DNA from: an uncultured Actinomycetota bacterium
GTDB taxonomy: Bacteria; Actinomycetota; Actinomycetes; Propionibacteriales; Nocardioidaceae
Assembly: GCA_963825755.1 (NCBI GenBank)
Contig: CAWGUS010000003.1
Span: 15,416-79,415 of the forward strand
Direction of reading: 5' to 3'
DNA length: 64,000 nucleotides
Part shown: positions 32,295 to 53,217 of the stretch, one piece after another
Layout of the letters: each line of letters begins with the position of its first letter
How positions within the stretch are numbered: the first letter of the stretch is position 1
Notes under the pieces: generated by a model
Seen by the model: the letters and a program-made list of their open reading frames with translations, nothing else
Database searches by the model: none
What the model was told of the DNA's origin: nothing
Translations under genes and position numbers: made by a program

Positions 32295-32371
32295 GCCCCC
32301 GTAGCTCAGCTGGACAGAGCAGCGGCCTTCTAATCCGCCGGTCGGTGGTTCGAATCCACCCGGGGGCGCCA
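32295..32371 (+). tRNA. tRNA-Arg(UCU)
   Basis: Acceptor GCCCCCG/CGGGGGC, D arm TAGCTCAGCTGGACAGAGC, anticodon loop CTTCTAA, T arm GGTTCGAATCC, encoded CCA. Confidence 0.97.
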
Positions 32372-32429
32372 ACGTTTCGCCTGATCGGAGCAGGTTTCCG
32401 CCCGCGGGCCGACGAAGCTCGGGTGACCC

Positions 32430-32448
32430 CGCGCTACTCCCGCGCTAC
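32430..32448 (+). repeat. Putative integrase arm-type site (left)
   Basis: CGCGCTACTCCCGCGCTAC, identical to 43073-43091. Confidence 0.75.
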
Positions 32449-32673
32449 TAGCCACGGCGCGAGTCCGTATCGGTCCGTCTGGGTGTCGCTACGGACCGCG
32501 AGGGTCAACCCTCCGGTCCGGCTCCGTCTCCAGTCTCCTCCCGCCTCCCGGTCGTACGCCGCTCAGAGCCTCCCGAGAGCGCACTGCACGGCTGCAAACA
32601 GGCCTCTCGCGCGTTGACGGTCCCCGGAGGCGGGATCGGCCCTCCCGCCCCTCGCAACGGGAGGAGACGCTAG

Positions 32674-33156
32674 TCACGCTTCGGAACCTCCGTAGGGATC
32701 TTTCAAGCCGTCTAGATTGACCAGACCCGTTGCGACGAGCCCAAGCTCTTCTACGCTCAGAGCTTGGCCGCTTTCCACTTTCACGCGGAGCTCGATCTGA
32801 CGCAGTTCCAGGCTCGCATTCATCAGCTTCAGCTCTGCCCGTTTCGAGGGCAGGATGAACCATCGTGACGTGAACAGGGAGGCGCAGGCGCCAGCCAACA
32901 GGATGCTCGTGAGAAGAATGGTCAATGGTCGGGTCCCGTCGAGCGCGCCAGCGGCGATGGCGACGAGGTAGGCGATCGCACCGGCGGTGAGTGTGCCCAC
33001 GGCTTGCGCAGTTCCCTGAAACAGTAGATCGCTTCCAGTCGAGCGCAATCGCGTCACGCGACCGGAGGCACGTTTTCGATGCGAATCGACACGTGGTCGC
33101 AACTCGGCGATGGTCCTGCGCAGCTCTACGGCCCGCGCATCCTCTAGCTCGGTCAT
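32674..33156 (-). CDS. Hypothetical 2-TM cargo protein
   Basis: 160-aa ORF with two hydrophobic helices flanked by charged helical regions. Confidence 0.55.
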   Translation of the reverse strand: MTELEDARAVELRRTIAELRPRVDSHRKRASGRVTRLRSTGSDLLFQGTAQAVGTLTAGAIAYLVAIAAGALDGTRPLTILLTSILLAGACASLFTSRWFILPSKRAELKLMNASLELRQIELRVKVESGQALSVEELGLVATGLVNLDGLKDPYGGSEA

Positions 33157-33250
33157 CGTGTTTGGTCCTCAATCTGTCTGCCTTACCCAATGGGCAGTGC
33201 CCACCCACCCTGGATCGCAGCCGCTTCGGTCGTGTTGCTTAGATACAAGA

Positions 33251-33303
33251 GAAGCCCCGCACGGCCCGAGGTGATTTCAACATCTCGGTACGTGTGGGGC
33301 TTC
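33251..33303 (-). terminator. Long hairpin, likely intrinsic terminator of the 48-aa gene
   Basis: GAAGCCCCGCACG..CCGAGGTG-loop-CATCTCGG..CGTGTGGGGCTTC; pyrimidine-rich TCTTGT follows on the minus strand. Confidence 0.65.
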
Positions 33304-33369
33304 CCTAGACGTTGTGAGGCTTCCCCTCCATCAACGACATGGTCGAGCGCGCGTCACGCGGTCACATCA

Positions 33370-33516
33370 TCAGAGAGCGGCGCACTCGGAGCAGAGCGGC
33401 TTACCGCCCTTGCCGTCGCGCCGGTTCTCGCTCTCGATGTTGTTGCCGGTGTTGCAGTCCGTGTTGTCGTGATGCACGTTCTGCTTAATCGAGTGCCAAG
33501 CACTGGTCTTAGTCAT
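33370..33516 (-). CDS. 48-aa Cys/His microprotein, absent from the ORF track
   Basis: MTKTSAWHSIKQNVHHDNTDCNTGNNIESENRRDGKGGKPLCSECAAL*; GAGAGGAGG RBS, tandem TGA TGA stops, downstream terminator. Confidence 0.8.
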   Translation of the reverse strand: MTKTSAWHSIKQNVHHDNTDCNTGNNIESENRRDGKGGKPLCSECAAL

Positions 33517-33830
33517 GGGCCCTCCTCTCTCAGCCGTTAACGCGGCTTCTTAACGCCGGGGCCTTTCTCGACCCCTAGACCGAACCCTGCACGATCACAC
33601 CGACGCTTCTCGAGCAACACGCCGAACCCTTAATTACGCGTCGGTGCGTGACAACGAACTACAACGGTGTAACTCATGCACGGTTGAACTCAGTGTGCGT
33701 CCGGCCGGCAGGTCTTGGCAACCGGAAGCGGTCCACAAGTCGGTAACAGAAGATCCACAGTTCTCCTCGGGTCCCGGACAGCCCCGCCCAACCCCGGGAC
33801 CCCAGCGCTGCTTCGGCATAGCCTCCGGTC

Positions 33831-34478
33831 ATGCCAATCAACCTTGAGCTGTTTATCAGGCACACGCGAGGGCACGGCCTGGTCGAAGTGTTTCTGCGAG
33901 GACACTTGTGGATCGAGCAGTTCCTGGCCGAACTGATTGAGGCAGAGGTTCGCAACCCGGCACCGCTTCATCTCGTCAGGATGCCGTTCGCCCAGAAGGT
34001 CAACCTTGCCGAGGCGCTGGCCCTGCTAAGTCCGGGCGATGCGACGACGATTCGATTCCTCAACTCAGTGCGCAATCGGCTGGCACATGACCTCGCAGGC
34101 GAACCAACGAGCATCGACTTGGACCGGCTTGAATCCGGGCTTTCGAAGTCGCAGCAGGAGTTGGTCAGCAAGCTGCGGGCTGTGGCGCCTCAGCCTGATG
34201 AGCCCGAAGACACCGAGGACGTGCGCCGCTTGTCTGCCATCGTTCTCGCCCTCCTCACGGAGATTGAGCAACACCGTCAGTGGCATGTCTACTGGCGCGA
34301 AAACAAGATGCACCTAGACACGCATGGCCTTCTTGTCGCACTCTCCGAACAGCTTGGCATGACACCCATGAGCGCCGAGGAGTACCGGCGTCAGCACGGT
34401 GTGCCTGATCCCCCAACTCCAGCCGATGTAATGCTGCTTCGAGGAGGCACCGCTGACGGTGATGACTCACGTGTCTAG
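33831..34478 (+). CDS. HEPN-superfamily / MltR-like protein
   Basis: HLWIEQFL...FAQKVNLAEAL...LNSVRNRLAH (R-x4-H motif); TAGCCT 6 nt before ATG. Confidence 0.6.
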   Translation: MPINLELFIRHTRGHGLVEVFLRGHLWIEQFLAELIEAEVRNPAPLHLVRMPFAQKVNLAEALALLSPGDATTIRFLNSVRNRLAHDLAGEPTSIDLDRLESGLSKSQQELVSKLRAVAPQPDEPEDTEDVRRLSAIVLALLTEIEQHRQWHVYWRENKMHLDTHGLLVALSEQLGMTPMSAEEYRRQHGVPDPPTPADVMLLRGGTADGDDSRV

Positions 34479-34497
34479 CGTCTCGTAGCCAGGGACG

Positions 34498-35801
34498 TCA
34501 GCTGGTGCGCTTGGCCGCGATGCTGGTCACGTTCTCCGGTGCCTTGCGGCCCATCGCCTCAGCCACGGCAGCGCGTCTGCGCTTGCGAGCTTCGTCGTCG
34601 GTGTCGCTGTGCCAGTAGCGATCGAGCGTCATCATCGCGGAAGCATGGCCCAGGCGCTCCTGCACTTCCTTGATCGTCAGGCCGCCCGCGTCGAGCAGAG
34701 TGCTCGCGTGGAAGTGCCGGAGGTCGTAGAAGCGCACAGAGTCCGGCAGCCCAACAACTTGGCAGGTCGTGCGCCAGTACCGCTTGTAGAACGCGCCGTA
34801 ACGCATGGGCTTCGTGTAGTCGAGTAGCTCGAGCGGAGCTTGGCCGTTGGCGCGCCCAACCCTTGTGCCGACGAACAGCGGCAGATCGCCGCCCGGGTGG
34901 ATGTGTTCCGCGTGCTCGGTGAACCACCTCGTGGCCCGTGCTCGATGGTCTGCGACGTACCGGCCGAGAACTTCTCCGGCGTAGGGATCGAGGTCGATGG
35001 TGCGCCGGCTGTTGTTGCGTCTTGGTCGCCTCCTCCCGGATCACTCGACCGCTGACCTCAACCACCACCCCACGGACCGAGACCGAGTGATTGATGGTGT
35101 CGACGTCCCCCAACGTTAGGCCGCACACCTCCTCCGGGCGCATCCCCGTCGCGGCGGCCAGCAGGACGAACACGTCGTACGGCTCGGGCAGCGCGGACAC
35201 GAGCTTGTCGACTTGTTGAGGTGTGATCCTGTGCCGCTTCCTCTCGTGCTCCGCGACCGACGCGGGCTTGGGGAGCCGACGGACGTTCACGTCGTGCGCG
35301 GGGTTCACCAGCAACAGGTCGTTCTCGACTGCGAAGTCCAGGATCTGCCGCATTGTGTAGAACCGATGACGAACCGTCTGCGCGGCCTTGGTCTCGGCGG
35401 TCATCTTGATGAACGTGCTGACGGCGCTCGGGGTGATGTCTCCGATGGCGGTCTTGTTGAAGGTGCGAGTGAGGTCGTTGTTGCCCTCGATGATCTTTCG
35501 GTAGTCGTCGCGAGTCCGCTGGCGGTCGAAGTGTTGCGCGTCGAGCCACTGCCGGGCGACGACAGCGAACGTCACGCGCGAGCGCTCCGGGTCGATCCAG
35601 TCGCCGCGTCTCGCAGTCGACATGAACTGATCCGCCCAGTCCTGCGCTGCACCCTTGGTGGTGAACCCACCCTTGGTCCGGCGAAGCCGGGTGTCGGGGT
35701 CGGTGTAGGCGACCTCGGTACCGTTTCCTGCCGTTGGGCAGTCGCCTCTTCTTGCTGCGGTCGCTCTCTCGGACCCAAGCCCTCGGTGCTCTCGCGCTCA
35801 T
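34498..35801 (-). CDS. int: Tyrosine integrase (frameshifted in this assembly)
   Basis: Arm-binding N-terminus (TKGGFTTK..A), core-binding region, catalytic ATGMRPEE, YDLRH, LGH...TLDRYWH. Confidence 0.92.
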
Positions 35802-36120
35802 CAGTTGGTCTCCTTTGTGAGTTGGGTGTGGAGCTTGTTGGCGGCGGTGCGTGCTCGGCGAAGGGTCGGGAAGTCAGCGGGTGGCTCGACGGGCTCGTCG
35901 CGTCCGTTCACCACCCCCACCCGATACAGGGGTGTGGGAGTGATGCGGACGGTCGTCAGAGCGAGCCAGCGGTCCGTGGCTGGGTCTTCGGTGTGCTCGA
36001 CCTGTACGCGCCGGTTCACGACGTCGGGCATCGCGTAGTCGCGGCCTCCGTGCGGGTGATAGACGTGCCAGCGAGGTTGACGTACAGCTCCGGGACGCCG
36101 GGTTGCCAGCTGGTGCTCAT
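35801..36120 (-). CDS. Hypothetical protein coupled to integrase
   Basis: ATGA overlap with the recombinase stop; 76-aa ORF in the track; stop abuts the int start. Confidence 0.45.
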
Positions 36121-36778
36121 GCGCTCTGGTCCCGGTTGATCAGGTCGACGATCACCGAGTGGTGCCAGGTATCTTGCACGGTCGGGGTCGGGATGCCGTC
36201 CGTGCTCAGACGACGTGCAATCTCCGACGCCGAGTGGCCTCTGCGGTGAAGGCGCATGACCTTCCGCTGGATCGTCGGGCTGATCGTGCTGGGCTTGCCG
36301 AGCTGGGTCGCATTCGCCTTCACGACCGCCAGCGCATCGCGGGTCCGCTCGGAGATGAGGCGGCGCTCAAGCTCCGCGTTGAGGGCCATCTGGCTAGCCA
36401 TGTACCCCAGCCCATAGCCGTGGTCGTATCGATCTTCTGATCGAGCACGGACATGTACCAACCCTGCTTCCTCGGCGGTCTTGAGGAGCGATCCGAAGTC
36501 CAGGTGGTCGCGGCTTCAGTCGGTCGTACTTGGCGATCACGAGCATGCTCGGCATCACCCGCACCAAGACAGACAGGGCGTCCTGTAGGCCGTCACGCCG
36601 GGTGTGGGCACCGGTCTTGCCGTTGTCGACCTTGACGTCGACCAGCTCCCAGCCGTTGTAGTCGGCTGACGCGCTTGATCGCCTCGCGCTGGACCTCGAT
36701 CGAGTACGGGTCTTGCTGGATGGCGCCGTCCTTGCCGCGCTTCGCCTTACTCAGCCGGGCATACCCAACGGCCCTCAT
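36117..36778 (-). CDS. Serine recombinase (resolvase-type catalytic domain plus short DNA-binding tail), frameshifted
   Basis: MRAVGYARLS (catalytic Ser), SIEVQREAI, AELERRLISERTRDALA...LGKP, SASEIARRLSTDGIPTP...W. Confidence 0.82.
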
Positions 36779-37080
36779 GACGCGTCCTCGACTGTGTAGC
36801 CGCGCAGGACCGTGATGGAGCTCCGGAGGTTGCGGGCGTAAGCAGCAGCGTCGGGCTCACCCATGCGGGCGGCGAGGTTGCCCAACACCAGCAGGCTCCG
36901 GCGGATCATCACCGGGCCGACAGCATCGAGCAAGGCAGCGCGCTCCTCGTCACCGGCCTCACAGAAGGTCAGGCCAAGCTGGCGAGCTTCGGCCTTGCTG
37001 ATGCCTGCCGGAGTGAACGCGATGTCGACCTCCTCATCAGGTGAGTAAGCCAACGTCGTTCCCAACGGATAGTCGTTCAT
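36775..37080 (-). CDS. Hypothetical protein
   Basis: 101-aa ORF with AGGAG RBS; ATGA-coupled to the serine recombinase. Confidence 0.6.
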   Translation of the reverse strand: MNDYPLGTTLAYSPDEEVDIAFTPAGISKAEARQLGLTFCEAGDEERAALLDAVGPVMIRRSLLVLGNLAARMGEPDAAAYARNLRSSITVLRGYTVEDAS

Positions 37081-37090
37081 GATTGCTCCT

Positions 37091-38248
37091 CTAGTCCGGT
37101 GGTTGAACGTTCAACCACTCGACTCGGAAGCTACGCCAGTCGCGGGGTGACGTTCGACAGGGGCGCGGAACGATCCGTACCCGCGTAGCTCGACCCACGA
37201 TCTGCAGCCCGGAGACAGGCCGGTACGTCCTCCGGGACCCCGGATCGCTCCACGCAGGCGAGAGCGGCCTCTGCACGCCGGGAGCATCGCTATCCTGGCT
37301 CTCGACGCCGCGCCGAACCTCGGCCTCATACGCCTCCCAGGGATCGCCGTCGGGACGGTGACCGGGTCGTGGGTCGTGCTCGGTTGCCTCCGCTTCACGT
37401 TCCCGGTGGCGCGTCGCGCGGGAAACCGAACAGGCTGGACCCATCCAGCGGGACGACATCGCCGGACACCACGTCGTGGTTGCGGTTGTCGATTCGTGTC
37501 TCGGTCTCGCGCTCCTCTGTCGCGGTCGCGGCGGTCGAGGAACGCCTCAAGCTCCTCATCCTCCCCACCACCAGCCGGAAGCTCGCCCTTGGTTGGGGTG
37601 GGGGATGAGAGCGTTCCCGGACCTCGCTTGATGATGTTGAAGCCAGTGTGCTGGAGGTTGTCGAAGACCGAAGGCTCGCGCAGGCCAAGGTCCACGAAGC
37701 TGTGCCGGTCTCGGGTAGCTGGTCCGATTCAAGATCGCCAACGCGGCCTTGATGCGGTCGTACTGGTATCCTGGCTTGGTCGAGCACGCGCTCCAATTGG
37801 GCGAGCGCAGGAATCACCATCGCGACGAATCTTTTCGTTGGCGGCCTTGCGAACCTGGGGCGCGTCGCCGCCTTATTGCGCAGGTCGCTGAACCACGGCG
37901 AGCTTGCTGGCCGCAAGGTCCCTAGCTTTGTTGTGCGCCGTACAACGGCGATGGACCTGGCCGCACTTTTCACATGGAGGGCGCGAGGCAACGCCGGTCC
38001 CTTCAACCTTCTGCACGCTCGGCTCGGCCTTCGACCGCTTCACTCAGTCGATCCACTCTTAGGGTCCCGCCTTGGCACTGACTCCTCGGCCGCGCTCGGC
38101 TTCGTTTGGGCTTCTTCGGTATCACCAGCCCCTTCCGACGTCTCCGGTCCAGAGTCGGGGTCCGGTGTCGGGCGTTTTCGACCGACCGTCCCCCTTGCAG
38201 GGATGGGGATTCGGTCTCGGGTCCCCCGGTCCAGAGGTTCCTGCGCAT
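37091..38248 (-). CDS. HGGxSTG-like Zn protein resembling actinophage terminase small subunits (reconstructed across frameshifts; ends uncertain)
   Basis: Stitched frames: PCEKCGQVHRRCTAHNKA / GPCGQQARRGSATC / GGDAPQVRKAANEKI ... IKAALAILNRT. Confidence 0.5.
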
Positions 38249-38330
38249 ATCCCTCTCTAACGTGAGCGAGGGAAGGGGAGTCCGCGAGAGTCGTCCCTCG
38301 TAGCCCTAGACCTCCATATTTTCTGCACTC

Positions 38331-38434
38331 TGGACCCGAGATCGGAGTTTCCCCTTGCGTGCTAAAAGGGCACTTCAGGTGGGTCCGGAGGTCCGATATC
38401 CCCCCGGACCCGCGGGTGGACCCGCTGGACCCGC
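38331..38434. repeat. Iteron-like GGACCCG(C) cluster, putative replication origin
   Basis: GGACCCG at 38332; GGACCCGC at 38406, 38418, 38427; inverted GGGTCC/GGTCC at 38381 and 38390; directly downstream of the primase-helicase. Confidence 0.55.
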
Positions 38435-38469
38435 TTATTGGGCAACTCACGCTCGACCGGCACCGCCCG

Positions 38470-40837
38470 CAGTCGGATGCCCCGCCAGTAGCGAGTCTGT
38501 TGTCGCCACCGCCCTTGGGGGTCTTGTCCCCGACCCCTGAGTCTAGCAGGAGCCCTCGATTTGTTGTTTGAAGGCCGCGCCCCCACCGGTTTTGACGTCC
38601 CTGCCTATAGGCCTCACAGGACTCCCAGAGGTTCTCGTTGGAGTCCTCGTGCTCGGCGGCGAGATCACAGCAAGCGGTCAGCCACCGGTCGAACGGGCTC
38701 AACGTATCCCCAGCACCATCTCGTCGCCTCAGCGACCACCAAAGGAACATCACCCGACACCTTCCCGGCAGCAACAGGCGCCAGCCACGCAGCAGCCACA
38801 TCAGGACACCCTCGGCCTCGTCGCCGACGTACTGCCTGTGGATTTCTTCTCCGCGACGTCGGCGCGTTGGACGTTGAACGGGATCACGTACAGACGCCGC
38901 CAAGGGCCTTGTCGGCACCGTTGATGGTGGGCGAGCGATCGGTGAGGATTGACGCCGTCCAGTCCGGCCGGCGGTCGAGGAAGTCGTTACCGTGACCCTT
39001 GCGGGCGGTGAGCGTGTCCTCGCCGGTCATCCGCTTGATGACGTCGGCGTGAGTCTCCCCACTCCGAAGACAGCTCGGAAACGTAGAGGAACCGACGCAG
39101 GATGGTGTTGATGATGTCGGGTCGTGGTGCCTCGTTGCTTCTCGCGGAACAGGGAGGGGTTGAACGTACCGGCGTAGTCCCGGCCCAGACCTCGGCGACA
39201 TCTCGAGGACGGTGGGACTTGCTGGTGTTGGAGCCCCTTGGCGACACCAGCTCTGTTCGGGGTTGCCGCCGAGCGAGTGACCCCGAGCGTTTCTGAAGGA
39301 AGCGACGTACATCGGCGTCAGGCAGCTTCTCCTTCAGCAATCTCTCCCACGAAGGTGCCTTAGCTCGCGGCGTGTAGTCGGACGGCACCATGCGAGTGAT
39401 CCGGTCTTCGCGGCGATGTTCGCGGGCGGTCGCAGAGCCGTCCTGTCCGAGTTCCACAGTCTGGTTCTTGAACGAAAGCAGGCGTGCTTGGTTGTCGAAG
39501 TCGCTGAGCTGGACCGTCATGCCCTTCAAGGAACGAGCTACCCGAAGCATCGCGGCGAGCTTGTGGGCCTCTCCGCACCGCGTTGCCCACGACAGAAGCT
39601 TCGTCGCCTGGGCCTCGTCGTCCAACCGGAGAGCCTGAGCATCTCCCCGCATCCGTTTGACCACGTCCATCGCGAACCGCTCGGCGATGCCGGTGTTGTC
39701 GATGATCCAACGGGACCCGTTCCACCACACCCAGGACCCAAGCAGGTTCACCCACCGCATGTCCTCACCGTGGGTCTCGATGAGCCGTTGGGCGTTGCCC
39801 GTGTCGTTCCATGTGAACGCGGCACCGACCGCGCCAATCGCATCACGCGCAGGTTCGAAGAAGGCGCTGGCTATCGTCGCCTCGACCTCTGAGACCGGGA
39901 ACGGATCGGATTCCGAGTTGCCCACGCGCTTGTGGAACTCATGTCCCACCGCGAGCGCCTCAGCCTCCGGTAGCGCTCGTCTCGGAGCTGACAGGCCAAC
40001 CAGAAGAGCGCTTGGTTTCTTGAGCCCATCTCTTGGCACTCGGCGTTCACGGCGACGGCGAGCTCGTCGGCGCTCCGCTCATCGGTCGGTCGGTCGGGCG
40101 TCCAAGCTGGCGACGACTCGCATAGCTCCCACAGGTCCTGCGCTGATCGGTCGTGGCTCACGAACCAGTCCGCGAGGTCGTCGCCGTCGCCGGGGAGGTC
40201 GAGATCCACGACATGAACCGCGGAGGCGATGCCATCGAGCTTCGCTGCGAGTTTGCGCGCTCCCGACCGCCCGGCGTCGTCACAGTCGTACGCCACGAAC
40301 ACGCGCTCGCCCCTGAACCTCGACAGGTTCTGTGGAACGGTGCCCGCGCTTCCGGTCCCAGAGATGACCCTTCCTCGATGCCGGCGCGTGAGAGTCTTGC
40401 GCCGTCAGCAGGGCGTCGAGCTCGCCTTCGGTGACGACGACCGATTCGGCATCGACATCAGTGATCGCAGCGACGTACCAGCCCACGCGCGATCCCTTGG
40501 CGCCGATGATCTTGGGCCGGCCCTCACGCGCCTTGGGGTTGTAGCGGCGAACGTTCAGCACCCGGTCGCCGTCGAGCACCGGGATCATGACTCGCTGGGA
40601 TTCGATGTCATAGCCGAGCTGGGCTGCCTTGATGGAGGCCTTGGTCAGTCCGCGTCGACGTTTCAGGAAGGTCAGCACCCGCTTCTCAGTGAGCAGTTCA
40701 CGATGCCAACCCGCTACATGCTTGATGTTGGGAATGGTCATGGCTGCTGCTGCTGCTCGTGCTCTACGCGAACGGTCATGTGAAAATCGTTCCAGCTCGC
40801 GCGACCGGCGCGACGAAAACGCGAAATCCTTGGGCAT
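38470..40837 (-). CDS. Primase-helicase: Toprim + PriCT-like + D5_N + SF3 (P4-family) helicase, many frameshifts
   Basis: VVVTEGELDAL, VAYDCDDAG, DLADWF; GSRNQALFWLACQL; WNDTGNAQRL...WVWWNGSRW; IKRMTGEDTLTAR; ends uncertain. Confidence 0.85.
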
Positions 40838-40898
40838 TCAGGTCTGAATGGCGAAACATCAGAAGCGATACGCCCGTCAGCCGATGTGTTACACGCAC

Positions 40899-41341
40899 TC
40901 ATGACCGGACACCCTTCGGCGCGTTGGGCGGCCGCCGGTCGCCACGCAAGCCGACCTCAACGACCTTGGTGCCGTAGCGGAAATACCACTGCTCGCGGAA
41001 CCACACGTAGCTATCTCGGGCTCGTCCGACTTCGACAACCAGTGCGTGACAAATGCCGGTGGACGGAACTCAACAGCGTGCACTGCCCGATGGGCGCATC
41101 AACGCCTCTGCGAGTGCCAGCTCAGGTTCGGCGTCGAACATCGGCGCGTGCGCTTGAGCAAACGCCTGACCACGTGCACGGGCTTCCCGCGGCGCTTGCC
41201 GTCGAGCGCGACGTCCACCAGCCACTGATGATACGGCGGCTCAGCCTCGGTGTTAGACAGCGGGTCGAGCCAGCGGATGAGCACGTCCATTCGCAGTCCG
41301 AATGTTCCAAGGCGCGGGCGATCTAGAATCGAGTCGTTCAT
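40899..41341 (-). CDS. Hypothetical protein (probably frameshifted)
   Basis: GAGGAGG RBS before MNDSILDRP; end uncertain. Confidence 0.45.
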
Positions 41342-41405
41342 GTGAGTCCTCCTCGAACTCAGGCGGGGCCAGTCGGCGAGTTCCACTGGCCCCGCTGCAC
41401 GTCAG

Positions 41406-41907
41406 TCAGAAGTTGGGTCGCTCGTGCCCGTTGAGGACTTCGTCGCTGAGCCGGGGCAGCCGTGATCGCAGCGCCGGGAAGCGGTTGAGGGCTCGGGCTT
41501 GGAACGTGGCGGCATCGCAGTCAACCTGGGACCAGGAACGCTCCTCGGTGGCCTCCGGCGCTCGCACGCGCCTTGTCGAGCTTGTTCAGGTCCCGCGTCA
41601 CGGCACCCACCTGCCGCGCGCCTTCGGCCGCCGTGATGCGTTGGTGCTCGACGTCATCCCCGATCTCGCCCAAGGTCTCGCGCAGCTTGCTTGCGATGCG
41701 TTCGATGTCCACGGCCTCGCGAGCGACACGCGTCGCCTCCGAGTCGTACGTGTCGCGCATGATCCCGGTCATGTGAGCGGTGTAACCCTGGTTGAACTGA
41801 TCCCAGCCGCGCCTCTGTCGGTCCGACCCAGAGAAGTTCTCCCGCTGAGCCAAGGACTCCGCGAGCGTGAGCGAAACCTGCGCGCCGATCCGCGATACCG
41901 CGCTCAT
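41406..41907 (-). CDS. Hypothetical helical protein
   Basis: MSAVSRIGAQV..., ATGA-coupled to the upstream ORF; C-terminus appears in another frame. Confidence 0.5.
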
Positions 41908-42128
41908 GAGTGCACCTGATTCGGGTTCGTGAGCGCGGGGGCGCGCCTGCTGTCCTCGGAACGCGCCGAAGCATCGCCCTTCCCGAGGGTCGACTCCCGC
42001 TCGAAGGCCGAACGGATCACGTCCAACGTTCCGTTCGCTGACTCTCGTGCCGCCTTCATGGCGGTGGCCGCGCCGTCCAGGTTCGGCTTGCGCCGAACGA
42101 GGCCATGTGGGTTCTTCTGCTGTGTCAT
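41904..42128 (-). CDS. Hypothetical protein
   Basis: GAGG RBS before MTQQKNPHG. Confidence 0.5.
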   Translation of the reverse strand: MTQQKNPHGLVRRKPNLDGAATAMKAARESANGTLDVIRSAFERESTLGKGDASARSEDSRRAPALTNPNQVHS

Positions 42129-42199
42129 GTTCCTCAACCTCGCGTCGTTTGCGTTCTCGAGTTTCTGTGGCTCTCTGCGCCCGGAGCGCAGCTCCGCGT

Positions 42200-42400
42200 T
42201 CACTGGGACTGCCGAGCGGCGGACTCATGCCGCGCCACGTCTTTCAGCACTCGCTGGGTGTAGTGGGCGTACGACGCCCTCATGACCTCCGCGACCCGGA
42301 CGCCCATCAACGCGGCGACGGTCTTCAGGTCGGCGTAAAGCTCTGGCGGCACCACAACCTTGCGGGTGACGCCGAGCTTAGGTCGGCCTCCATTGCCCAT
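42200..42400 (-). CDS. Small ribbon-helix-helix-like DNA-binding protein
   Basis: AAGGAGGAG RBS; GRPKLGVTRKVVVPPELYADLK..A...G..VAEVMR pattern. Confidence 0.6.
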   Translation of the reverse strand: MGNGGRPKLGVTRKVVVPPELYADLKTVAALMGVRVAEVMRASYAHYTQRVLKDVARHESAARQSQ

Positions 42401-42523
42401 CACTCCTCCTTTGGGTCTTCCGCGGTCCGCTCAAACGCCCCGCTTTCGAGAACTCTTCGCCAGCGGCCGCCATGACGCCTGTCAGCCCACAGCCGTGCCG
42501 TTGATGGCAGATGGGCGGCAGAG

Positions 42524-42754
42524 CTACTTGGTGAGGAACCGGATCAGTTCGGCGCGTGTGTAGTACGCACCAGAGCGAGCGCCGGCAGGCCGCATAGCCT
42601 TGAGCACGGGCGGATCGGCGAGGCGCCAGCGCTTCAGCTGACGCAGAGAGACGTTCAGCAGGTCGCTCACCTGCTCGGCGTTGAACATGGCGCCGGGCGG
42701 CAGGCCGAGCTGATCGACCTGGAGGTGGGGCGTGGACTTGGTCTTGCTGGGCAT
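42524..42754 (-). CDS. Excisionase/AlpA/MerR-like HTH protein
   Basis: FNAEQVSDLLNVSLRQLKRWR...YYTRAELIRFL; first gene of the element operon next to attR. Confidence 0.72.
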   Translation of the reverse strand: MPSKTKSTPHLQVDQLGLPPGAMFNAEQVSDLLNVSLRQLKRWRLADPPVLKAMRPAGARSGAYYTRAELIRFLTK

Positions 42755-43072
42755 TGAGGGCACCTTCCCGTCGAGGGTCGGGTGCCTAGAGACGACGACA
42801 GCTGCACCAAGCACCCAGCCCACGATGTTGTTGTCGTGAGTCGGGTGCTGTCCGGCTTCATGGGAACTCGACCCGCCGTGGCGGTGCCGGAACCATCACA
42901 GAGCCGCTATTCGTCCTTCGGTCACATCCGTCAGGTTGCCCATCATCGGGCCGAAGGAACAGCGGTTCATCTGGAGTTGTAGGGCCAGTTTACCCGCTCG
43001 GGCGATGCGCCTTGGGTCTGCTTGAGGCCGCGTGCGTAGTGAGCAGCATCAGGAGGGCTCACGCCGACCTGG

Positions 43073-43091
43073 CGCGCTACTCCCGCGCTAC
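43073..43091 (+). repeat. Putative integrase arm-type site (right)
   Basis: CGCGCTACTCCCGCGCTAC, identical to 32430-32448. Confidence 0.75.
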
Positions 43092-43234
43092 CGGACTCGA
43101 ATCCACGCAAATCTGATCCGAGCTCTGCCCTTCCGTAGAGCGGCAAACGCTCAGAGCCCTACGTACAGCGCGATTCGGGCCAACGCGTAGTCTCCTGCCG
43201 TACTCTCGGGACCCATGCAGACCTGTCGCGCTCG

Positions 43235-43279
43235 CTTCTAATCCGCCGGTCGGTGGTTCGAATCCACCCGGGGGCGCCA
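43235..43279 (+). repeat. attR: duplicated 3' 45 bp of tRNA-Arg
   Basis: CTTCTAATCCGCCGGTCGGTGGTTCGAATCCACCCGGGGGCGCCA. Confidence 0.95.
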
Positions 43280-43287: not shown

Positions 43288-44656
43288 TGTATTACTTCGC
43301 CTGATGGGTGACGTTCGGGCTTCGGCTGATGCGTTACACATCTTCGGGTGATGGGTGACAGCTACTTCGGTTGATTGGTGACACTCCCTTGATGAGGGAG
43401 TTGAGCGTGTCCGAGCAGCGGTATCAGGCCGTGCTGGCGGTGATCAGCGACGGCGAGACGATCTCGAGCGTGGCGGCCAGGTTTGGGGTGCATCGCAAGA
43501 CGGTGCACGGGTGGTTGGCCAGGTACGAGGCCGATGGCCTGGAGGGCCTGAGGGATCGGTCGCATCGCCCGCGGTCGTGTCCGCACCAGATCCGCGCGAG
43601 TGTCGAGGCGTTGGTCGCCACGATGCGGTCTTCGCATCCGGGGTGGGGGCCGCGCCGGCTGGTCTTCGAGCTGGGCAGGGCCGGCGTGGAGCCGGTGCCG
43701 TCGGAGTCCGCGGTGTACCGGTGCCTGGTGCGGTTGAACCTGATCGACCCCTCGGGACGCCGGCGTCGGGACAAGAAGTGGAAGCGGTGGGAGCGGGGGC
43801 TGCCGATGGAGCTGTGGCAGATGGATGTCGTGGGCGGGGTCGTGCTGGCCGACGGGCGGCGGGCCAAGGCGTTGACCGGGGTCGATGACCACTCCAGGTT
43901 CTGCGTCAGCGCGTACCTGATGCTGCGGGAGAGTTCGCCGAACGTGTGTGACGGGCTCGCGGCCGCCCTGCGTACCTACGGGGTGCCCGGACAGATCCTG
44001 ACCGACAACGGGAAGGTGTTCACCGGCCGGTTCAACCAGCCGCCGGTGGAGGTGCTCTTCGACCGGATCTGTCGAGAGAACGGAATCGAGCACCTACACA
44101 CCCAGCCGCAGGTCACCGACCACGACCGGGAAGATCGAGAGGTTCCATCGGGCGTTGCGTACCGAGTTCCGCACCGACCGGGTCTTCGACGACCTCGCCA
44201 CCGCACAACACGAGCTCGACGAGTGGGTCCACGACTACAACCACGACCGGCCCCACCAGGCGCTGGACATGGCCGCCCCGGCGTCACGTTTCCTCAGACC
44301 TGACGCCGGCGCCCGTGGCCCCGATCCGAACATCACGCAGCCCTGGCCGGCCCGGCGAGAGCCGCACCGACGGCACCTGGGTCACCCGCCGGGCCAGTGC
44401 CGTCGGGGTGGTGTGTGTCAGCTGGCAACAAGTCTGCCTCGGCGTGGCCGCAGCAGGCCGACCCCATCGACGTATGGGTCACCGATCACGTCCTGCAGTT
44501 CTACGACGGCGACCAGCTGCTGCGCACCCAGAAACGAGACAGCACCGGGGAAGTGAGGGTCAAGAGATCCCAAGCGCCACAACGGCGTCCTACAGTGACA
44601 ACGAGTGTCACCGATCAACCGAACTAGATCTGTCACCCATCAGCCGAAGGTCTTCA
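43288..44656 (+). mobile_element. IS481-family insertion sequence with 17-bp flanking direct repeat
   Basis: Imperfect IRs TGTATTACTTCGCCTGATGGGTGAC / GTCACCCATCAGCCGAAGGTCTTCA; GGGGCGCCACGCTTCAG at 43271-43287 and 44657-44673. Confidence 0.9.
43392..44627 (+). CDS. IS481-family DDE transposase (frameshifted)
   Basis: HTH (VAARFGVHRKTVHGW), LRDRSHRP, LWQMD, DDHSRF, ILTDNG, TTGKIERFH in next frame, YNHDRPHQAL. Confidence 0.9.
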
Positions 44657-44669
44657 GGGGCGCCACGCT

Positions 44670-45068
44670 TCAGCGACGGTGCCAGGTGTCGTCGCCGGGC
44701 TCCCGGCGCGTGAGCTCACGGCTCGCGAACCGCCAGCCGGCACCGTCCCTGACGAACGCGTCGGCATACGAGTTCGAGGTGACGAGGACAGGCGGCCGGC
44801 CGGGTGGGCTCTGACGCACCGTGACGTCGCACGTGGCCGAGGCGCGCAGCCTGTCGGCGTCGACGCGAATCATCACGTTGCTCACCACGTGCTCGGTCAG
44901 GGTCTCCCCGCCGTAGGTGATCACGTTGGCCTCGAGCCAGGCACGTACGGCGTCGCTGCCGGGCTGCCCCAGCCAGGTCGCACCACGGAAGAGACGTGCG
45001 AAGCCGTCGAAGTCGGCGTCGTCGACCAGGCAGGCGTACTCGTCGAGCAACCGCCGGATGGCGGCCAC
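44670..45068 (-). CDS. SnoaL/NTF2-like protein (start uncertain)
   Basis: IRRLLDEYACLVD..DFDGFARLF...TEHVVSNV...YADAFVR....WRFASR. Confidence 0.8.
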   Translation of the reverse strand: MAAIRRLLDEYACLVDDADFDGFARLFRGATWLGQPGSDAVRAWLEANVITYGGETLTEHVVSNVMIRVDADRLRASATCDVTVRQSPPGRPPVLVTSNSYADAFVRDGAGWRFASRELTRREPGDDTWHRR

Positions 45069-45095
45069 GTCGCTTCGCGTGCCGGTCGCTTTTAT

Positions 45096-45108
45096 TTCAC
45101 ATAGTTTA
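45096..45108. promoter_or_regulatory. Degenerate TTAAC-N3-GTTAA operator
   Basis: TTCACATAGTTTA in the AT-rich divergent gap. Confidence 0.45.
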
Positions 45109-45169
45109 GCAATAGGGTCGGAGCATCGCCAGGGACAGCTCCACCGAGGACCGCCCGACGGCCTCCTGG

Positions 45170-46324
45170 GTGTTGGTGGCCGCGGCGATGGCGGCAGCCG
45201 GAGGCCTGACCATGGGCTTCGGCCGGCTCACGTTCGCGTTCGTGCTGGAGGACATGCGTCGCGACTTCGTCACCAGCTACACAGCGGCCGGGGTCATCGG
45301 GGCCGCGAACCTGTTCGGCTACCTGGTCGGCGTCTTCCTCACCAACCGCTGGCTTCGCCGCCTCAGCCCGTCCACCCTGGCCGTCCGAGGGATGGCCGCC
45401 TCGCTCGTCGGCATGGTCGGCGTTCCGCTGCTGGCAGACCAGGTGTCGGCGTTCCTCTTCATGGCGCTACTCGGATTCACCGGCGGCATCGTCTGGATCT
45501 CCTGCGTCCCGATCGTGTCGCGCGCCGCGCCGCCGAGGCACCGCGGCGTGGCCTATGGGATCATGGTCTCCGGTATCGGCTCCAGCATCGCGCTGACGGG
45601 GCTGATCGTCCGCTGGTCGAACCACACGTTCGGCGCAGGGTCCTGGCAAGAGGTCTGGTACGCCGAAGGGCTCCTCGGCGTCGCGCTGCTTGCGATCGTG
45701 GCGCGGGTGCTCGCCCGCGACCCGGTGCCGGCCCCCCGGGCCGAGCCGACCCCGACCCGGCGCGAAAGCCGGGCCGTCCCGCCCGGGCTGTTCGGTGCGA
45801 TGGCGTGCTACTTCCTGTACGGCGTCGTGCACTCCCTGTACTCCAACTTCCTGGTCGCGGGAGTGCAGGAGGGCGACCACCTGTCAGCCGGGCAGGCAGC
45901 CTCGGTGTTCTCCCTTCTCGGGCTGACGAACATCGTCGGCGGCATCGTGCTCGGCCGGAGCTCCGACATGGTCGGCCGGCGACCCGTCCTCGTCACGGCG
46001 ATGGTGGCGATGACCGTGTGCGCGGCCGTCGTGCCGACGCACGTGACGGCTCTGGTGGTGGCGTCGGGGGCCGTGTACGGGCTGCTCATGAGCGGGCTCC
46101 CCTCGGTCATCACCGCGACCCTGAACGACCGCTTCGGCGGTGCCCGGCTCTCGGCCGCCTACACCGCCATCACGCTCGCCGTCGGCGCGGGCCAGCTCAT
46201 CGGGCCCCCCGTGGGAGGGGCCCTGGCAGACGGGACGGGAAGCTTCACCAGCACCTTCGTCCTGGCCGCGGCCGCAGCTGCCGCGGGCATCGTCGCCGCA
46301 GCGTTCATCCGCACCAGACCCTGA
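45170..46324 (+). CDS. MFS transporter (YbfB/YjiJ-like)
   Basis: MGFGRLTFA, ANLFGYLVG, GRSSDMVGRR; about 12 hydrophobic segments. Confidence 0.88.
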   Translation: MLVAAAMAAAGGLTMGFGRLTFAFVLEDMRRDFVTSYTAAGVIGAANLFGYLVGVFLTNRWLRRLSPSTLAVRGMAASLVGMVGVPLLADQVSAFLFMALLGFTGGIVWISCVPIVSRAAPPRHRGVAYGIMVSGIGSSIALTGLIVRWSNHTFGAGSWQEVWYAEGLLGVALLAIVARVLARDPVPAPRAEPTPTRRESRAVPPGLFGAMACYFLYGVVHSLYSNFLVAGVQEGDHLSAGQAASVFSLLGLTNIVGGIVLGRSSDMVGRRPVLVTAMVAMTVCAAVVPTHVTALVVASGAVYGLLMSGLPSVITATLNDRFGGARLSAAYTAITLAVGAGQLIGPPVGGALADGTGSFTSTFVLAAAAAAAGIVAAAFIRTRP

Positions 46325-46353
46325 CCTCGCCACCCCGCTCTGGAACAGCGGAA

Positions 46354-46381
46354 GGCCCGGCTCCCCGAGGGGAGCCGGGCC
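46354..46381. terminator. Perfect hairpin between convergent genes
   Basis: GGCCCGGCTCCC-CGAG-GGGAGCCGGGCC. Confidence 0.8.
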
Positions 46382-46404
46382 CTGCCGGAGCCGGTGTCGT
46401 GTGA

Positions 46405-47595
46405 CTACGGCGTGAACTCCTGCGGCTTGCCGTCGACGAACTGGAACGACACGAGGGCCTTCGAGAACCCGTCGCGCTCGCCGTCGAACTCGATCTGCGC
46501 CCCCTCCTTGCCTGCTGCGCCTGCGGACGGCTCGAGGTCGTCGAGCGCCTTGGCCAGGGTGTCGCCATCGGTGTCGCCCTCGGTCGCGTCGAGCGCGGCC
46601 TTGAGCAGCTGGAAGGAGTCCCAGGTGGCGGCGTTCTGCTCGGCGAGGCCGAGGGCGAGCTCGGCGGGGTCGCCGCCGTACTCGTCGGCGTACGCCTCGA
46701 TGAACGCCTGGTACTCCGGTTTGGACGGCTGCTGGTTCGACAGCGTGTAGATGGCCGGCAGCTGGGTGTAGGCGTCGCCGCCGATCTTCAGTGCGTCGGG
46801 GGCGATCAGCGACCCGAAGCCGACGACCGGCACCATCACGCCGGCTTCCGCCATCGTCTTGAGCATCAGCCCGGCGTCCGCCGCCGACGACCCGATGTGC
46901 ACTACGGCGTCGGGCTTCTCGGACTTCAGCTGCTGGACGGCCGAGGTCAGGTCGGTCGCGCCGAGCGTGTACTTCACGGTCTCCCCCGGCGTCATGCCCG
47001 CCGCCGTTGCCGCCTCCTCGATCTGCGGGAAGAGGGTGGCGCCGGTGGGCCCGTCGTCAGCTGTCACGACCGGGTTCTTGTAGCCCAGCTGCTGCAGGAG
47101 CTCGATCATCTGCACCGGGTAGTCGCTCTGGTCGTGCGCGACGCGGAAGGTGTACTTCGCGCCGTCCATGAGCGCCGGTGAGATCGTCGAGGCGTTCATG
47201 AAGACGATCTTGCGGGGCTCGGAGACCTGGCGGATGGCGAGTCCCTCGATGGAGGTGTAGCCGCCCATCATGATCTCGGCACCGTCGACCGTGATGGCCC
47301 GCTGGGTGATCTTGGCAGACTCGTCGGCGGTGAGCTTGTCGTCGTAGACCTTCAGCTCGAGCTGGCGACCGCCGGCGCCGCCGTCGGCGTTGATGGTCTT
47401 GACCGCGAGCTTGGCGGTGTTGACCATCTGCTCGGCCACGGCGGAGTTGCCGCTCGTGATCGGCGACGCGTACCCGATGACGATCGCGTCCGAGCTGTCT
47501 GTGCCACTGTCCCCCGAGTCGTTGCCACAGCCGGCGAGGGCGAGGGTGGCAGCGGCCAACAGTGCTCCACCACGCATGAGACGTGTGCGCTTCAC
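46405..47595 (-). CDS. ABC substrate-binding lipoprotein (LivJ/Peripla_BP_6 type)
   Basis: Lipobox LAGC; IVIG..PITSG, INADGG.GGRQLEL..YDD, TFRV. Confidence 0.9.
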   Translation of the reverse strand: MKRTRLMRGGALLAAATLALAGCGNDSGDSGTDSSDAIVIGYASPITSGNSAVAEQMVNTAKLAVKTINADGGAGGRQLELKVYDDKLTADESAKITQRAITVDGAEIMMGGYTSIEGLAIRQVSEPRKIVFMNASTISPALMDGAKYTFRVAHDQSDYPVQMIELLQQLGYKNPVVTADDGPTGATLFPQIEEAATAAGMTPGETVKYTLGATDLTSAVQQLKSEKPDAVVHIGSSAADAGLMLKTMAEAGVMVPVVGFGSLIAPDALKIGGDAYTQLPAIYTLSNQQPSKPEYQAFIEAYADEYGGDPAELALGLAEQNAATWDSFQLLKAALDATEGDTDGDTLAKALDDLEPSAGAAGKEGAQIEFDGERDGFSKALVSFQFVDGKPQEFTP

Positions 47596-47644
47596 AAGTG
47601 AACTCCTTTGGGACAGAGAAGCGGCGCGAGCCCTTCGAATTTGA

Positions 47645-47727
47645 TTAACATGGCGAACCTTTTGAAGAGATTCCCGTCACAGACCGCGGAAGTCAAGATC
47701 TTTCACGTAACTATTTAACGTAGCGAA
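47645..47727. promoter_or_regulatory. SBP promoter region with three TTAAC-N3-GTTAA-like boxes
   Basis: TTAACATGGCGAA (47645), TTCACGTAACTAT (47702), TTAACGTAGCGAA (47715); TTGACT on minus at 47696-47691. Confidence 0.6.
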
Positions 47728-48164
47728 TCAATTTGTGCGAGCCGCCACTGGACCATGCCCACCTCGTCGGCGACCCGGACCGCGTAGGCCTCGACCGGGC
47801 CGTCGATGCGAACGTCGTCAATCAGGCAGTCAGTGATGTTGCCCATGACCCGGGGACCTTCCTCGAGATCCACCAGGGCCACGACGTACGGCACGTCCTC
47901 CGCGAACCCGGGCATGCCGGCCTGCCGGATCACGGAGAAGCTGTAGACCCGCCCGCGACCACTCGCCTCCTCCCACTCCGGGGTCGTCCCGCACCGCACG
48001 CAGACGGCGCGCGGGTAGTGCTGCGCGTGCCTGCAGGCCGGGCACCGCTGGATGACGAACCGCCCCTCCGCGACCGCCGCGAAGTACGCCTTGCTGATGG
48101 GGTCCGACCCGGGGACCGGCTTGACCCACGTCTCCCGGACATCGACGACCTCGAGCTGTGTCAC
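47715..48164 (-). CDS. DUF35 Zn-ribbon/OB-fold protein (ChsH2-like)
   Basis: QRCPAC...YPRAVC..C, SGRGRVYSFSV, PYVVALVDLEEGPR. Confidence 0.9.
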   Translation of the reverse strand: MTQLEVVDVRETWVKPVPGSDPISKAYFAAVAEGRFVIQRCPACRHAQHYPRAVCVRCGTTPEWEEASGRGRVYSFSVIRQAGMPGFAEDVPYVVALVDLEEGPRVMGNITDCLIDDVRIDGPVEAYAVRVADEVGMVQWRLAQIDSLR

Positions 48165-49332: not shown

Positions 49333-49364
49333 GCAGTCTCCAGGGTGGTCTCGGACGGGACAGG

Positions 49365-50972: not shown

Positions 50973-51000
50973 GGGGCGCCCTTCGCCTCTCAAGAATTAA

Positions 51001-51075
51001 TTAACCATGTATAACATTCACCCCGAGGCTAGGCAATGCTGCCCGATGGCCGAACAGAACTCTTTACCAAGCTAA
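51001..51075. promoter_or_regulatory. Divergent promoter region with two operator boxes
   Basis: TTAACCATGTATA (51001), TTTACCAAGCTAA (51063). Confidence 0.65.
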
Positions 51076-51098
51076 ACAAATGTGGTTCAGTGCCCGAC

Positions 51099-53216: not shown

Positions 53217-53217
53217 G

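Follow-up and report, generated by a model that had tools for sequence, protein, structure and literature searches.

The window analysed here, a 64,000-nucleotide stretch of DNA, comes from a Nocardioides-like bacterium in which an island of ~11 kb occupies an arginine tRNA gene. The locus raises the question of what kind of mobile element this is and how it spreads. Based on comparisons of sequence and gene order, we propose that the island most likely belongs to a conserved family of actinobacterial PICI-like phage satellites.

Integration site

The insertion into tRNA-Arg(UCU) and the 45-bp att duplication described in the initial annotation were both confirmed, by ARAGORN and by a perfect direct repeat:

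32295..32371, plus strand: tRNA-Arg(TCT), integration target (ARAGORN)
32327..32371, plus strand: attL core, 45 bp, 3' part of the tRNA (100% identical to attR)
32430..32448, no strand: putative arm-type repeat, 19 bp, tandem 11-mers (exact copy at right)
43073..43091, no strand: putative arm-type repeat, 19 bp, identical to the left one (exact repeat)
43235..43279, plus strand: attR core, 45 bp (100% direct repeat of attL)

Elsewhere in the whole assembly the att core has a single match, of 39 bp at 92.5% identity, at another tRNA-Arg. The 19-bp exact repeats, one 58 bp inside attL and the other 143 bp inside attR, are also confirmed and are longer than anything shared by 60 random host pairs (maximum 13 bp); they are likely the arm sites of the integrase. 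Among the 11 relatives described below, only L028 also carries exact arm repeats above chance. The GC content of the element is 0.643, versus 0.710 and 0.708 in the flanks. None of five related genomes has a family gene next to this tRNA.

Gene content of the island

The element carries a single minus-strand run, xis–RHH–u1–u2–u3–primase/helicase–iterons–TerS-like–u4–small serine recombinase–u5–tyrosine integrase, followed by cargo, in the order first reported. Four gene junctions overlap as ATGA or TGATG, and RHH and u1 overlap as GTGA. A scan with Pfam, PHROGs and NCBIfam profiles, covering 85 minus-strand stop-free segments and 2-3 plus-strand ones, matched HTH_17, Toprim, D5_N (E 5.7e-26), pieces of a P4-type helicase, Resolvase and Recombinase, and Phage_integrase.

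42524..42754, minus strand: Xis-like HTH, first in the run (HTH_17 E 0.0017, below cut-off; relatives match phrog_66 excisionase)
42200..42403, minus strand: ribbon-helix-helix-type regulator (hhalign 98.6% to relatives)
41904..42203, minus strand: u1, ~100-aa helical protein of no known family (HMM E 1.2e-7; score 97 versus null maximum 50)
41406..41907, minus strand: u2, ~170-aa long helical hairpin of no known family, one frameshift (HMM E 2.5e-10 and 2.4e-5)
40900..41341, minus strand: u3, broken ORF (similarity to relatives' u3 within chance)
38440..40741, minus strand: Toprim primase fused to D5_N/SF3 helicase, P4-alpha-like, ~14 frameshifts (profile matches)
38110..38470, no strand: iteron array, likely replication origin (shuffle test)
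37395..38100, minus strand: predicted small terminase, Cys/His motif and helical hairpin, at least five frameshifts, ends approximate (frameshift-aware score 180 versus null maximum 65)
36775..37080, minus strand: u4, 101-aa protein, common to L121 and L122 (hhalign 99.9%, E 4.5e-32)
36117..36778, minus strand: small serine recombinase, Resolvase and short Recombinase domain, four frameshifts (profile matches)
35801..36120, minus strand: u5, family-specific small protein before the integrase (45% to L007 u5; HMM E 2.5e-20)
34498..35801, minus strand: tyrosine integrase, last gene of the run, two frameshifts (Pfam; family HMM E 1.9e-70 and 3.5e-49; tree)

In L007, the intact primase-helicase matches phrog_1156 at E 5e-113 and the intact small serine recombinase matches Resolvase at E 1.4e-29, while the L030 copy of the RHH regulator matches RHH_1 above cut-off (E 1.9e-4). 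When compared with relatives, u2 of the window scored 134 (null maximum 30) and u3 scored 31 (null maximum 34; hhalign E 0.015), the latter not above chance. u5 is also present in L120, L121 and L122, and a homologue search with it returned u5 itself alone. The iterons are five copies of CGGGTCC between helicase and TerS, a count matched by 3 of 200 shuffles.

The scanned segments gave no match to AlpA, MerR or Stl regulators, their regulators being the HTH_17 protein below cut-off and the RHH protein. Capsid, portal, large terminase (TerL), tail, lysis, relaxase and FtsK genes, all originally reported as missing, were likewise not detected by profiles within these segments; five FtsK matches in the genome all lie on other contigs. 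A capsid HMM derived from the relatives had no match among the 1076 six-frame segments of the window. Profile searches also returned no conjugation or structural homologues for the unassigned ORFs; their detection is what had been named beforehand as speaking against the satellite reading.

The small terminase

The TerS of the window is detected by HMM at E 2.1e-5. The family profile A2 (41 proteins) has two matches among 177,635 PDB sequences at E<=10, and both are small terminases, from PaP3 (1.8e-6) and NV1 (2.8e-5). PaP3 and NV1 small terminases also make up the top five Foldseek matches of the TerS model, with a weak structural likeness: Foldseek E is 0.7-2.6, and the VIA Z of 3.5-3.7 is lower than for unrelated hairpins. 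A four-copy complex prediction of the TerS core reached 0.32 versus a mark of 0.42 and carries no weight either way.

In 9 of 13 distinct viral contexts TerL comes immediately after a gene of this family, and in 7/16 further genome loci such a gene lies 0-6 kb upstream of TerL. Several isolated phages have the homologue as a hypothetical gene, at a distance of 1.5-3 kb or more from TerL; in phage LuckyBarnes a different gene is noted as TerS. Searches with the TerS fragment of the window against annotated phages gave four matches, at E 5-7 only, and the HMM matched one of four fetched stretches of phages sharing the capsid family (Weiss13 gp1). Taken together, profile and synteny support the identification of a small terminase, with predicted activity. 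The match to terminases of solved structure gives a name to a gene that is annotated as hypothetical in many actinophages. The family was previously unrecognised, and is counted among what is new here; it has no Pfam match and only an 'unknown' entry in PHROGs, and these elements would therefore probably escape finders that rely on profiles.

A family of islands with the same gene order

Eleven other att-bounded elements, of 10.7–13.8 kb, keep this gene order. With the window they form a dozen islands that carry a phage-type DNA-packaging gene and lack portal, large-terminase and tail genes, a combination that makes spread by phage hijack likely. Iteron arrays occupy the same place in 8/8 relatives tested (0-2 of 200 shuffles), and the small serine recombinase is present in 9/11. 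The suggestion that the element represents a family is borne out by the conserved order. The family is not restricted to one tRNA, and its spread is patchy, over at least seven tRNA types and several genera; we found no description of the family in the literature searched, whose coverage mostly excluded subscription journals. Similarly, the integrase is indeed last in the window and in 11/11 relatives, but its position ~2 kb inside attL reflects variable cargo, as the L027 integrase ends ~110 bp from the tRNA.

Searches of the family for the fused primase gave matches in 5/200 and 3/400 other genomes, with the layout only in G029 and G344; G325 proved to be unrelated tandem repeats. A tblastn-screened metagenome scan gave at least 35 loci, with part of the order in L071-L074, L081 and L096 among the matches listed. 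Thirteen primase loci came from IMG/VR. No att duplication was found for L121 and L122. Duplicates were counted once (L169 = L036; L027 = L007), and two loci were dropped from the family counts, L123 as a remnant and L127 for a false u2 match. The host assembly (77.6% complete) gave no homologue of TerL or of the phrog_3990 capsid.

Could the island instead be mobilised by conjugation, as an AICE or other integrative element? The conjugative transfer module of AICEs is an FtsK-like Tra protein. No such module was found in the island; indeed, relaxase, FtsK and RCR Rep gave no match in the window segments or in 106 proteins of nine relatives, and conjugation has no role for TerS and capsid genes. 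We therefore consider this origin very improbable, even if size, tRNA target and tyrosine integrase fit what the cited passages of PMC2440964 describe.

The slot downstream of xis

The slot after xis holds a lone major capsid gene in 3/11 relatives, and the u2 coiled-coil gene in 7/11, as in the window. In the capsid carriers (L029, L036 and L041), a major head protein of phrog_3990 follows xis directly (E 1e-96 to 1e-108), and no portal or TerL was found between the att sites. Two capsid-bearing elements nest inside the same integrase clade as the window (support 100/100), and the integrase tree rejects a single clade of capsid-type elements. The slot is swappable between a capsid gene and u1/u2, which is also new.

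The L027 copy of u2 was modelled with a pLDDT of 94.8, and profile and fold searches returned only generic coiled coils and hairpins (best Z 11.2, a designed bundle). u2 forms 63 clusters at 50% identity (E<=1e-10); ~2% of the genomes sampled from the order carry it, and so do dozens of clusters from metagenomes. The genes in the capsid-less slot may reshape a stolen helper capsid.

These data also bear on whether the island is a deletion remnant of a prophage, which we regard as the least probable origin. TerS-family genes do occur in prophage-like loci with TerL, and the primase has phage homologues. However, the relatives did not turn out to be long prophages: the 11 copies are independent and att-bounded, with the same order and size in different tRNAs and with diverged sequences, and u2, despite its many clusters, has no PHROG match and no BFVD match at E<=0.001.

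Cargo

32674..33156, minus strand: 160-aa hydrophobic protein of no family (no Pfam, PHROG or PADLOC match)
33370..33516, minus strand: 48-aa Cys/His protein, cargo also in L033, L120 and L122 (HMM E 1.3e-25)
33831..34478, plus strand: 215-aa protein, phrog_5483 ('unknown'), RxxxxH motif (E 1e-7)

The cargo of the window gave no match in the PADLOC defence library. The 215-aa protein, with no PDB match under E 0.3, carries an RxxxxH motif that we take to be HEPN-like, and is a possible defence gene. The cargo of relatives includes type II and IIG R-M, PD-Lambda-5, AbiTii, AbiU and PD-T7-4-like systems.

Such richness in defence genes would also suit an inducible anti-phage island, which excises and replicates, poisons phage assembly through TerS and capsid or u1/u2, and is not itself efficiently packaged. 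Interference genes are selectable by themselves, and no element with this gene order was found in three scans of IMG/VR. Nevertheless, the tight size range of the 11 elements and their patchy spread, with no conjugation genes, call for a vehicle, and TerS beside the origin is the PICI layout in the cited passages of PMC6092414. We consider this alternative improbable.

Frameshifts in the window copy

All long genes of the window element carry frameshifts: ~27 events, and no in-frame stops, over 6.2 kb aligned, with none in six intact controls. The density, 4.4/kb versus 0.13/kb in 45 conserved host genes, means that this copy may be decayed, and the codon-model count is also higher in the element (1.27/kb) than elsewhere in the assembly (0.14-0.64/kb). 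A dead copy, which would be compatible with a satellite at the family level, is nonetheless rather doubtful: so many frameshifts without a single in-frame stop are probably read errors, the att and arm repeats are perfect, and frameshifts occur in all six assembly regions counted, while 9/10 control loci have none. Long-read errors are thus the most likely explanation.

Proposed life cycle

The satellite reading is supported by the TerS profile and synteny, the conserved architecture and the lone capsid gene of relatives. We propose that the island would be excised, replicated and packaged into helper particles by means of its own predicted small terminase. Infection would turn on the single operon from the xis end, and the integrase and Xis would excise a circle to be replicated from the iterons by the primase-helicase. 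Multimers would be resolved by the small serine recombinase, which is presumably not the integrase, since it also occurs in comM-inserted elements bearing a large serine integrase. TerS would bring the helper TerL to island DNA. In the weakest step, the slot after xis would alter or jam helper capsid assembly, through the capsid protein or u1/u2. The variable cargo would defend the host. Lytic actinophages are our best guess for the helper.

More tentatively, and with appreciable doubt, these islands could be widespread, unrecognised actinobacterial satellites of lytic phages, defined by a zinc-finger-type TerS and a single exchangeable slot for capsid hijacking. Either a stolen major capsid gene would occupy this slot, or u1/u2, acting as a new coiled-coil scaffold to shrink or jam the capsid of the helper; the comM-inserted sister group would again have this TerS, this capsid and this small serine recombinase. 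If true, a new family of capsid-hijacking proteins would be added, together with a carrier of defence genes in soil actinobacteria. The known satellites of Actinomycetota are few, and the literature searched gave none in Nocardioides or its order. Intact copies occur in complete isolate-quality genomes, which makes helper hunting and the capsid-versus-u1/u2 swap testable.

Comparison with known systems

According to the cited passages (Fillol-Salom 2018, PMC6092414; SatelliteFinder core set, PMC10085698), the family shares with Gram-negative-type PICIs an integrase, a putative HTH regulator without divergent repressor, a primase-replicase followed by an iteron origin, TerS, an optional capsid gene, a size of ~10 kb and the absence of tail and lysis genes. 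The divergent repressor pair is indeed missing, but this is not unusual, since Gram-negative PICIs usually lack it too (PMC6092414, passages cited). As in PICIs, the integrase lies at an att-bounded chromosomal site, the putative origin is just downstream of the primase-replicase, a small terminase is predicted by homology and synteny, and tail, holin, portal and head-tail genes are absent. A capsid morphogenesis gene, absent in SaPI-type variants, is lacking in the window and present in 3/11 relatives. In contrast to PICIs, where it comes first beside the regulator, the integrase ends one co-directional run; the capsid slot precedes the primase, most members have a small serine recombinase, TerS falls outside Pfam, and capsid-less members have u1/u2.

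The P4-like set Sid, Psu, Delta and Epsilon gave no Pfam or PHROG match, only the primase-helicase being P4-like, and the best 60 PDB matches of the u2 profile include no Sid or Psu. The cf-PICI set (own portal, TerL, protease and head-tail genes) is absent. EPIPs (PMC12822802), Ando (PMC13587820) and MiniFlayer/MulchRoom (PMC10690885) are also 11-14 kb helper-dependent elements of Actinomycetota, and are set apart by their descriptions, none of which, in the passages cited, has the island gene order. EPIPs encode TerS, with a serine integrase, tape-measure and head-tail genes, whereas the island has a tyrosine integrase and no such matches; Ando has genes for capsid proteins and for a terminase. 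Mycobacterial candidate PICIs, including phiRv1/phiRv2 (Abad et al., PMC10654092; PMC10085698), are actinobacterial and tRNA-integrated, with an integrase and a capsid gene; in the passages cited their mobilisation is putative and some are missed by SatelliteFinder. They may include relatives of the capsid-bearing type, and since they are defined by integrase and capsid (PMC10654092), capsid-less u2-type elements would be missed.

VEIMEs (PMC9618062) and PICMIs (PMC10803314) are described in the cited passages as smaller, from marine hosts, and packaged as concatemers without capsid remodelling, whereas the island family has a capsid-related slot. The second recombinase, initially seen as distinctive, is present, but is known from VEIMEs and tycheposons. 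PICI-like tycheposons (Hackl et al., bioRxiv 10.1101/2020.12.28.424599), as far as the cited passages describe them, are tRNA-integrated elements with tyrosine integrase, xis, primase/helicase and small serine recombinase; their packaging genes, TerS or MCP, are interchangeable and subject to module swapping. This hallmark set is found in the island when gene content alone is compared. Tycheposons occur in marine cyanobacteria and are reported to have one of the two packaging genes, TerS or MCP, and to lack extra cargo, whereas in the island family TerS is constant, MCP is optional and defence cargo is common.

Integration site and boundaries

The initial annotation placed the element in a tRNA-Arg gene, with a 45-bp att duplication and paired arm-type repeats, and both features were borne out:

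32295-32371, tRNA-Arg(TCT), the integration target
32327-43279, the element, with its gene run on the minus strand
43235-43279, exact repeat of the last 45 bp of the tRNA gene
43320-44649, directly beyond attR, IS481-family element with inverted repeats and a frameshifted transposase
44650-64000, continuing to G000:C3:98500, ~40 kb of extra accessory DNA

One 19-bp repeat lies within each element end, compared to a control maximum of 13 bp (60 pairs), and the GC content is 0.643 within the element versus 0.71 in the surrounding DNA. The host assembly (G000; 4.2 Mb, 77.6% complete) was called Nocardioides-like because the proteins encoded beside a locus titled Nocardioides match its genes at 76-93% identity. 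The stretches fetched around the same tRNA from five related genomes carried no family gene (0/5), and in the closest of these relatives the gene next to the tRNA corresponds to a G000 position ~51 kb downstream; the element, the IS481 and the further accessory DNA are therefore insertions. The ~40-kb accessory DNA, which runs from the element to the gene found next after the tRNA in the nearest of these genomes, has MFS, ABC substrate-binding and acyl-CoA genes in its ORF list. A second tRNA-Arg(TCT) in the host (G000:C8:17381-17454), with 39 bp at 92.5% identity to the att core, is element-free.

Gene content and frameshifts

Of the gene run initially described, scans of stop-free segments recovered a Xis-like HTH, pieces of a Toprim, D5_N and helicase gene, a Resolvase/Recombinase and a tyrosine integrase, and virion, lysis and conjugation families gave no match in the segments scanned; all FtsK matches of the genome were on other contigs. 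HMMs built without the window recovered its xis, u1, u2, primase, TerS, recombinase, u5, integrase and one cargo gene (u1-u5 being genes without a known family, and u2 a coiled-coil gene). RHH and u4 matched their relatives by hhalign, while the match of u3 to its relatives was not above chance. The iterons noted between helicase and TerS also held up, with an array reached by 3/200 shuffles. u1 and u2 (L027:6040-6872 in a relative; window 41406-42203) both carry an RFP motif at the C-terminus; with an hhalign match of 31.5% (E 5e-4), they may be paralogues.

Frameshift-aware alignment to intact homologues gave 27 frameshifts, some of which may be compensating pairs arising as alignment artefacts, and no stops over 6,196 bases of the element; six intact controls gave no events. 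Conserved host genes showed 6 frame changes across 45.8 kb. A codon model found frameshifts in all six assembly regions counted (0.14-1.27/kb, the element being highest), whereas nine of ten control loci had none. That the element exceeds the rest of the assembly may reflect genuine decay of this copy, but the indels come without stops, and the att and arm sites are perfect. Read errors are therefore favoured, and it is to these that the frameshifts appear to point.

A family of elements with the same gene order

When 200 genomes of the host's family were searched for the primase, one intact relative emerged, L007; it has the gene order of the window element and an att of 43 bp at tRNA-Lys, but carries its cargo at the opposite end. 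Its TerS-like protein as query gave 64 homologues, and a GTDB scan with an alignment of 41 of these returned 17 loci.

GTDB loci recovered with the TerS-like alignment
Att-bounded, same order (8): L027, L028, L029, L030, L031, L033, L036, L041
Partial same-order element (1): L032
Capsid and TerS, five comM-inserted and one similar partial: L034, L037, L039, L042, L043, L040
Prophage: L038
Other island: L035

Among 400 further genomes of the order, a u2 profile found eight matches; six loci (L120, L121, L122, L124, L125, L126) have the family order, with att found in the last three, and the other two were a remnant and a false hit. No att duplication was found for L121 and L122, the two closest relatives; in both, the element lies upstream of a co-directional tRNA-Met (L121:13299-13373, L122:6984-7058).

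Between their att sites the 11 bounded relatives span 10.7-13.8 kb, and they target Arg-TCT, Arg-CCT, Lys-TTT, Leu-TAA, Ser-TGA, Ala-CGC and Phe-GAA tRNAs, located at the integrase end in six cases and at the xis end in five. The integrase is the last gene in all 11, and nine carry the small serine recombinase. Replication genes differ (fused Toprim-D5, or split Toprim with AAA_25, DUF3631 or D5), and an iteron array between helicase and TerS was present in 8/8 relatives tested. The window element is a genuine family-level element.

The TerS-like protein

The intact protein had no Pfam match and matched phrog_3678, annotated as unknown. When compared to 177,635 PDB sequences (E<=10), the family profile gave two matches, both small terminases (PaP3, 1.8e-6; NV1, 2.8e-5), and the window copy falls within the family (score 180 versus a null maximum of 65). 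Sixteen IMG/VR loci with a TerS-family gene represent 13 distinct contexts, leaving out L047 and L048 (same match as L046, no gene calls) and L049 (a repeat of L045). The terminase large subunit (TerL) is the next gene in 9 of the 13 and lies 2 kb beyond in L054; none was seen in the viral contexts L044, L045 and L053. Several of the small IMG/VR proteins also match PHROG TerS families. Within the order, 400 genomes gave 22 hits, and TerL was 0-6 kb downstream in 7 of the 16 loci fetched. Counting against the TerS call are a moderate model (pLDDT 67.9) with weak fold matches, and six annotated phages that label the gene hypothetical, three having TerL 1.5-3 kb away and one giving the TerS name to another gene.

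In L045 and L049, both short contigs of viral origin with a GC content of 0.5, a coat gene of P22 type follows 2-3 kb past the TerS-family gene, with no TerL between. TerS-family genes also occur in non-actinobacterial or unassigned islands (L035, L087, L089, L091, L093) with primase and integrase, and TerL absent nearby.

The position after xis

In L029, L036 and L041, the gene after xis encodes the major head protein phrog_3990 (E 1e-96 to 1e-108), and these elements have neither portal nor TerL within their att boundaries. u2 is carried by the window and seven relatives, mostly alongside RHH and u1; L028, which has a u1-like ORF only and no capsid, is labelled as u2 type in the integrase tree. 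In this tree of 16 N-terminal parts, which has no outgroup and carries no direction of change, the window integrase groups with L122 and L121 in a 100/100 clade of 10 that takes in two capsid-bearing elements, and a single clade of the capsid type was rejected (p-AU 3e-129).

Capsids in 162 phage records share 24-45% identity with that of the islands, and 44 of the 45 matches listed lie at 38-45%; they belong to Mycobacterium, Gordonia and Microbacterium phages, which we take to be lytic. Phage Weiss13 combines the island-type capsid family with a TerS-family member, its gene 1, that lies upstream of the terminase; the TerS HMM had no match in stretches of three other phages. The u2 family comprises 139 clusters (63 at E<=1e-10), and its predicted fold is a long helical hairpin (pLDDT 94.8) for which fold and profile comparisons gave generic matches only. 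Their gene position suggests that u1 and u2 may act on a helper capsid.

Second recombinase, cargo and other groups

The small serine recombinase is also present in comM-inserted elements, which end in a large serine recombinase (487-519 aa); because the two occur together there, the small enzyme is unlikely to be the integrase, and it might instead resolve multimers. Cargo of the relatives includes R-M, PD-Lambda-5, AbiTii, AbiU and PD-T7-4-like genes; in a defence-gene search of 32 cargo proteins, approximately half had no match, including all three from the window.

A sister group (L034, L037, L039, L042, L043, L078, L080, L083, L084, L170) starts with the phrog_3990 capsid and the TerS family; replication genes of Prim-Pol or AAA_25 type come next, then the small serine recombinase, cargo and a large serine recombinase. 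In five members a truncated comM directly precedes the element. This is likely to be a second undescribed satellite group. L178:3768-13078 is a 9.3-kb island at tRNA-Val with a 47-bp att, integrase, TerS-family gene and adjoining TerL, and no match to the capsid HMM. L171:264-13125, between tRNA-Pro and tRNA-Gly, holds a u2/RHH remnant, integrase, TerS and helicase, with a 56-bp repeat and an arrangement unlike that of the family.

Comparison with known systems

In the literature searched we found no description of this family; the excerpt of PMC10111431 holds no actinobacterial case, and the gene contents of EPIPs (PMC12822802) and Ando (PMC13587820), as excerpted, are unlike that of the window element. 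According to the portions of the sources cited, AICEs require a transfer module (PMC2440964), and mycobacterial candidate PICIs are defined through integrase and capsid (PMC10654092). What is new is the TerS family and the exchange of capsid for u1/u2, both of which are testable.

The layout had been called non-canonical, and this stands for the terminal integrase (11/11 relatives). The missing repressor and second recombinase, however, have precedents in the passages cited: Gram-negative PICIs likewise have no master repressor (PMC6092414), the tycheposon gene list includes a small serine recombinase and TerS or MCP (bioRxiv 10.1101/2020.12.28.424599), and VEIMEs carry either recombinase or both (PMC9618062). 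With the SatelliteFinder PICI core, as excerpted (PMC10085698), the element shares integrase, primase and TerS, but differs in gene order and has no capsid gene; its regulators are a Xis-like HTH_17 below cut-off and an RHH, with no AlpA, MerR or Stl profile matching the segments scanned. Since the capsid gene is missing and the order differs, we do not claim a canonical PICI, although the element would work like one. The proposal of an actinobacterial phage satellite is upheld in PICI-like form by the TerS profile and synteny and by the conserved family order, and on this genomic evidence the window element is most likely a PICI-like satellite.
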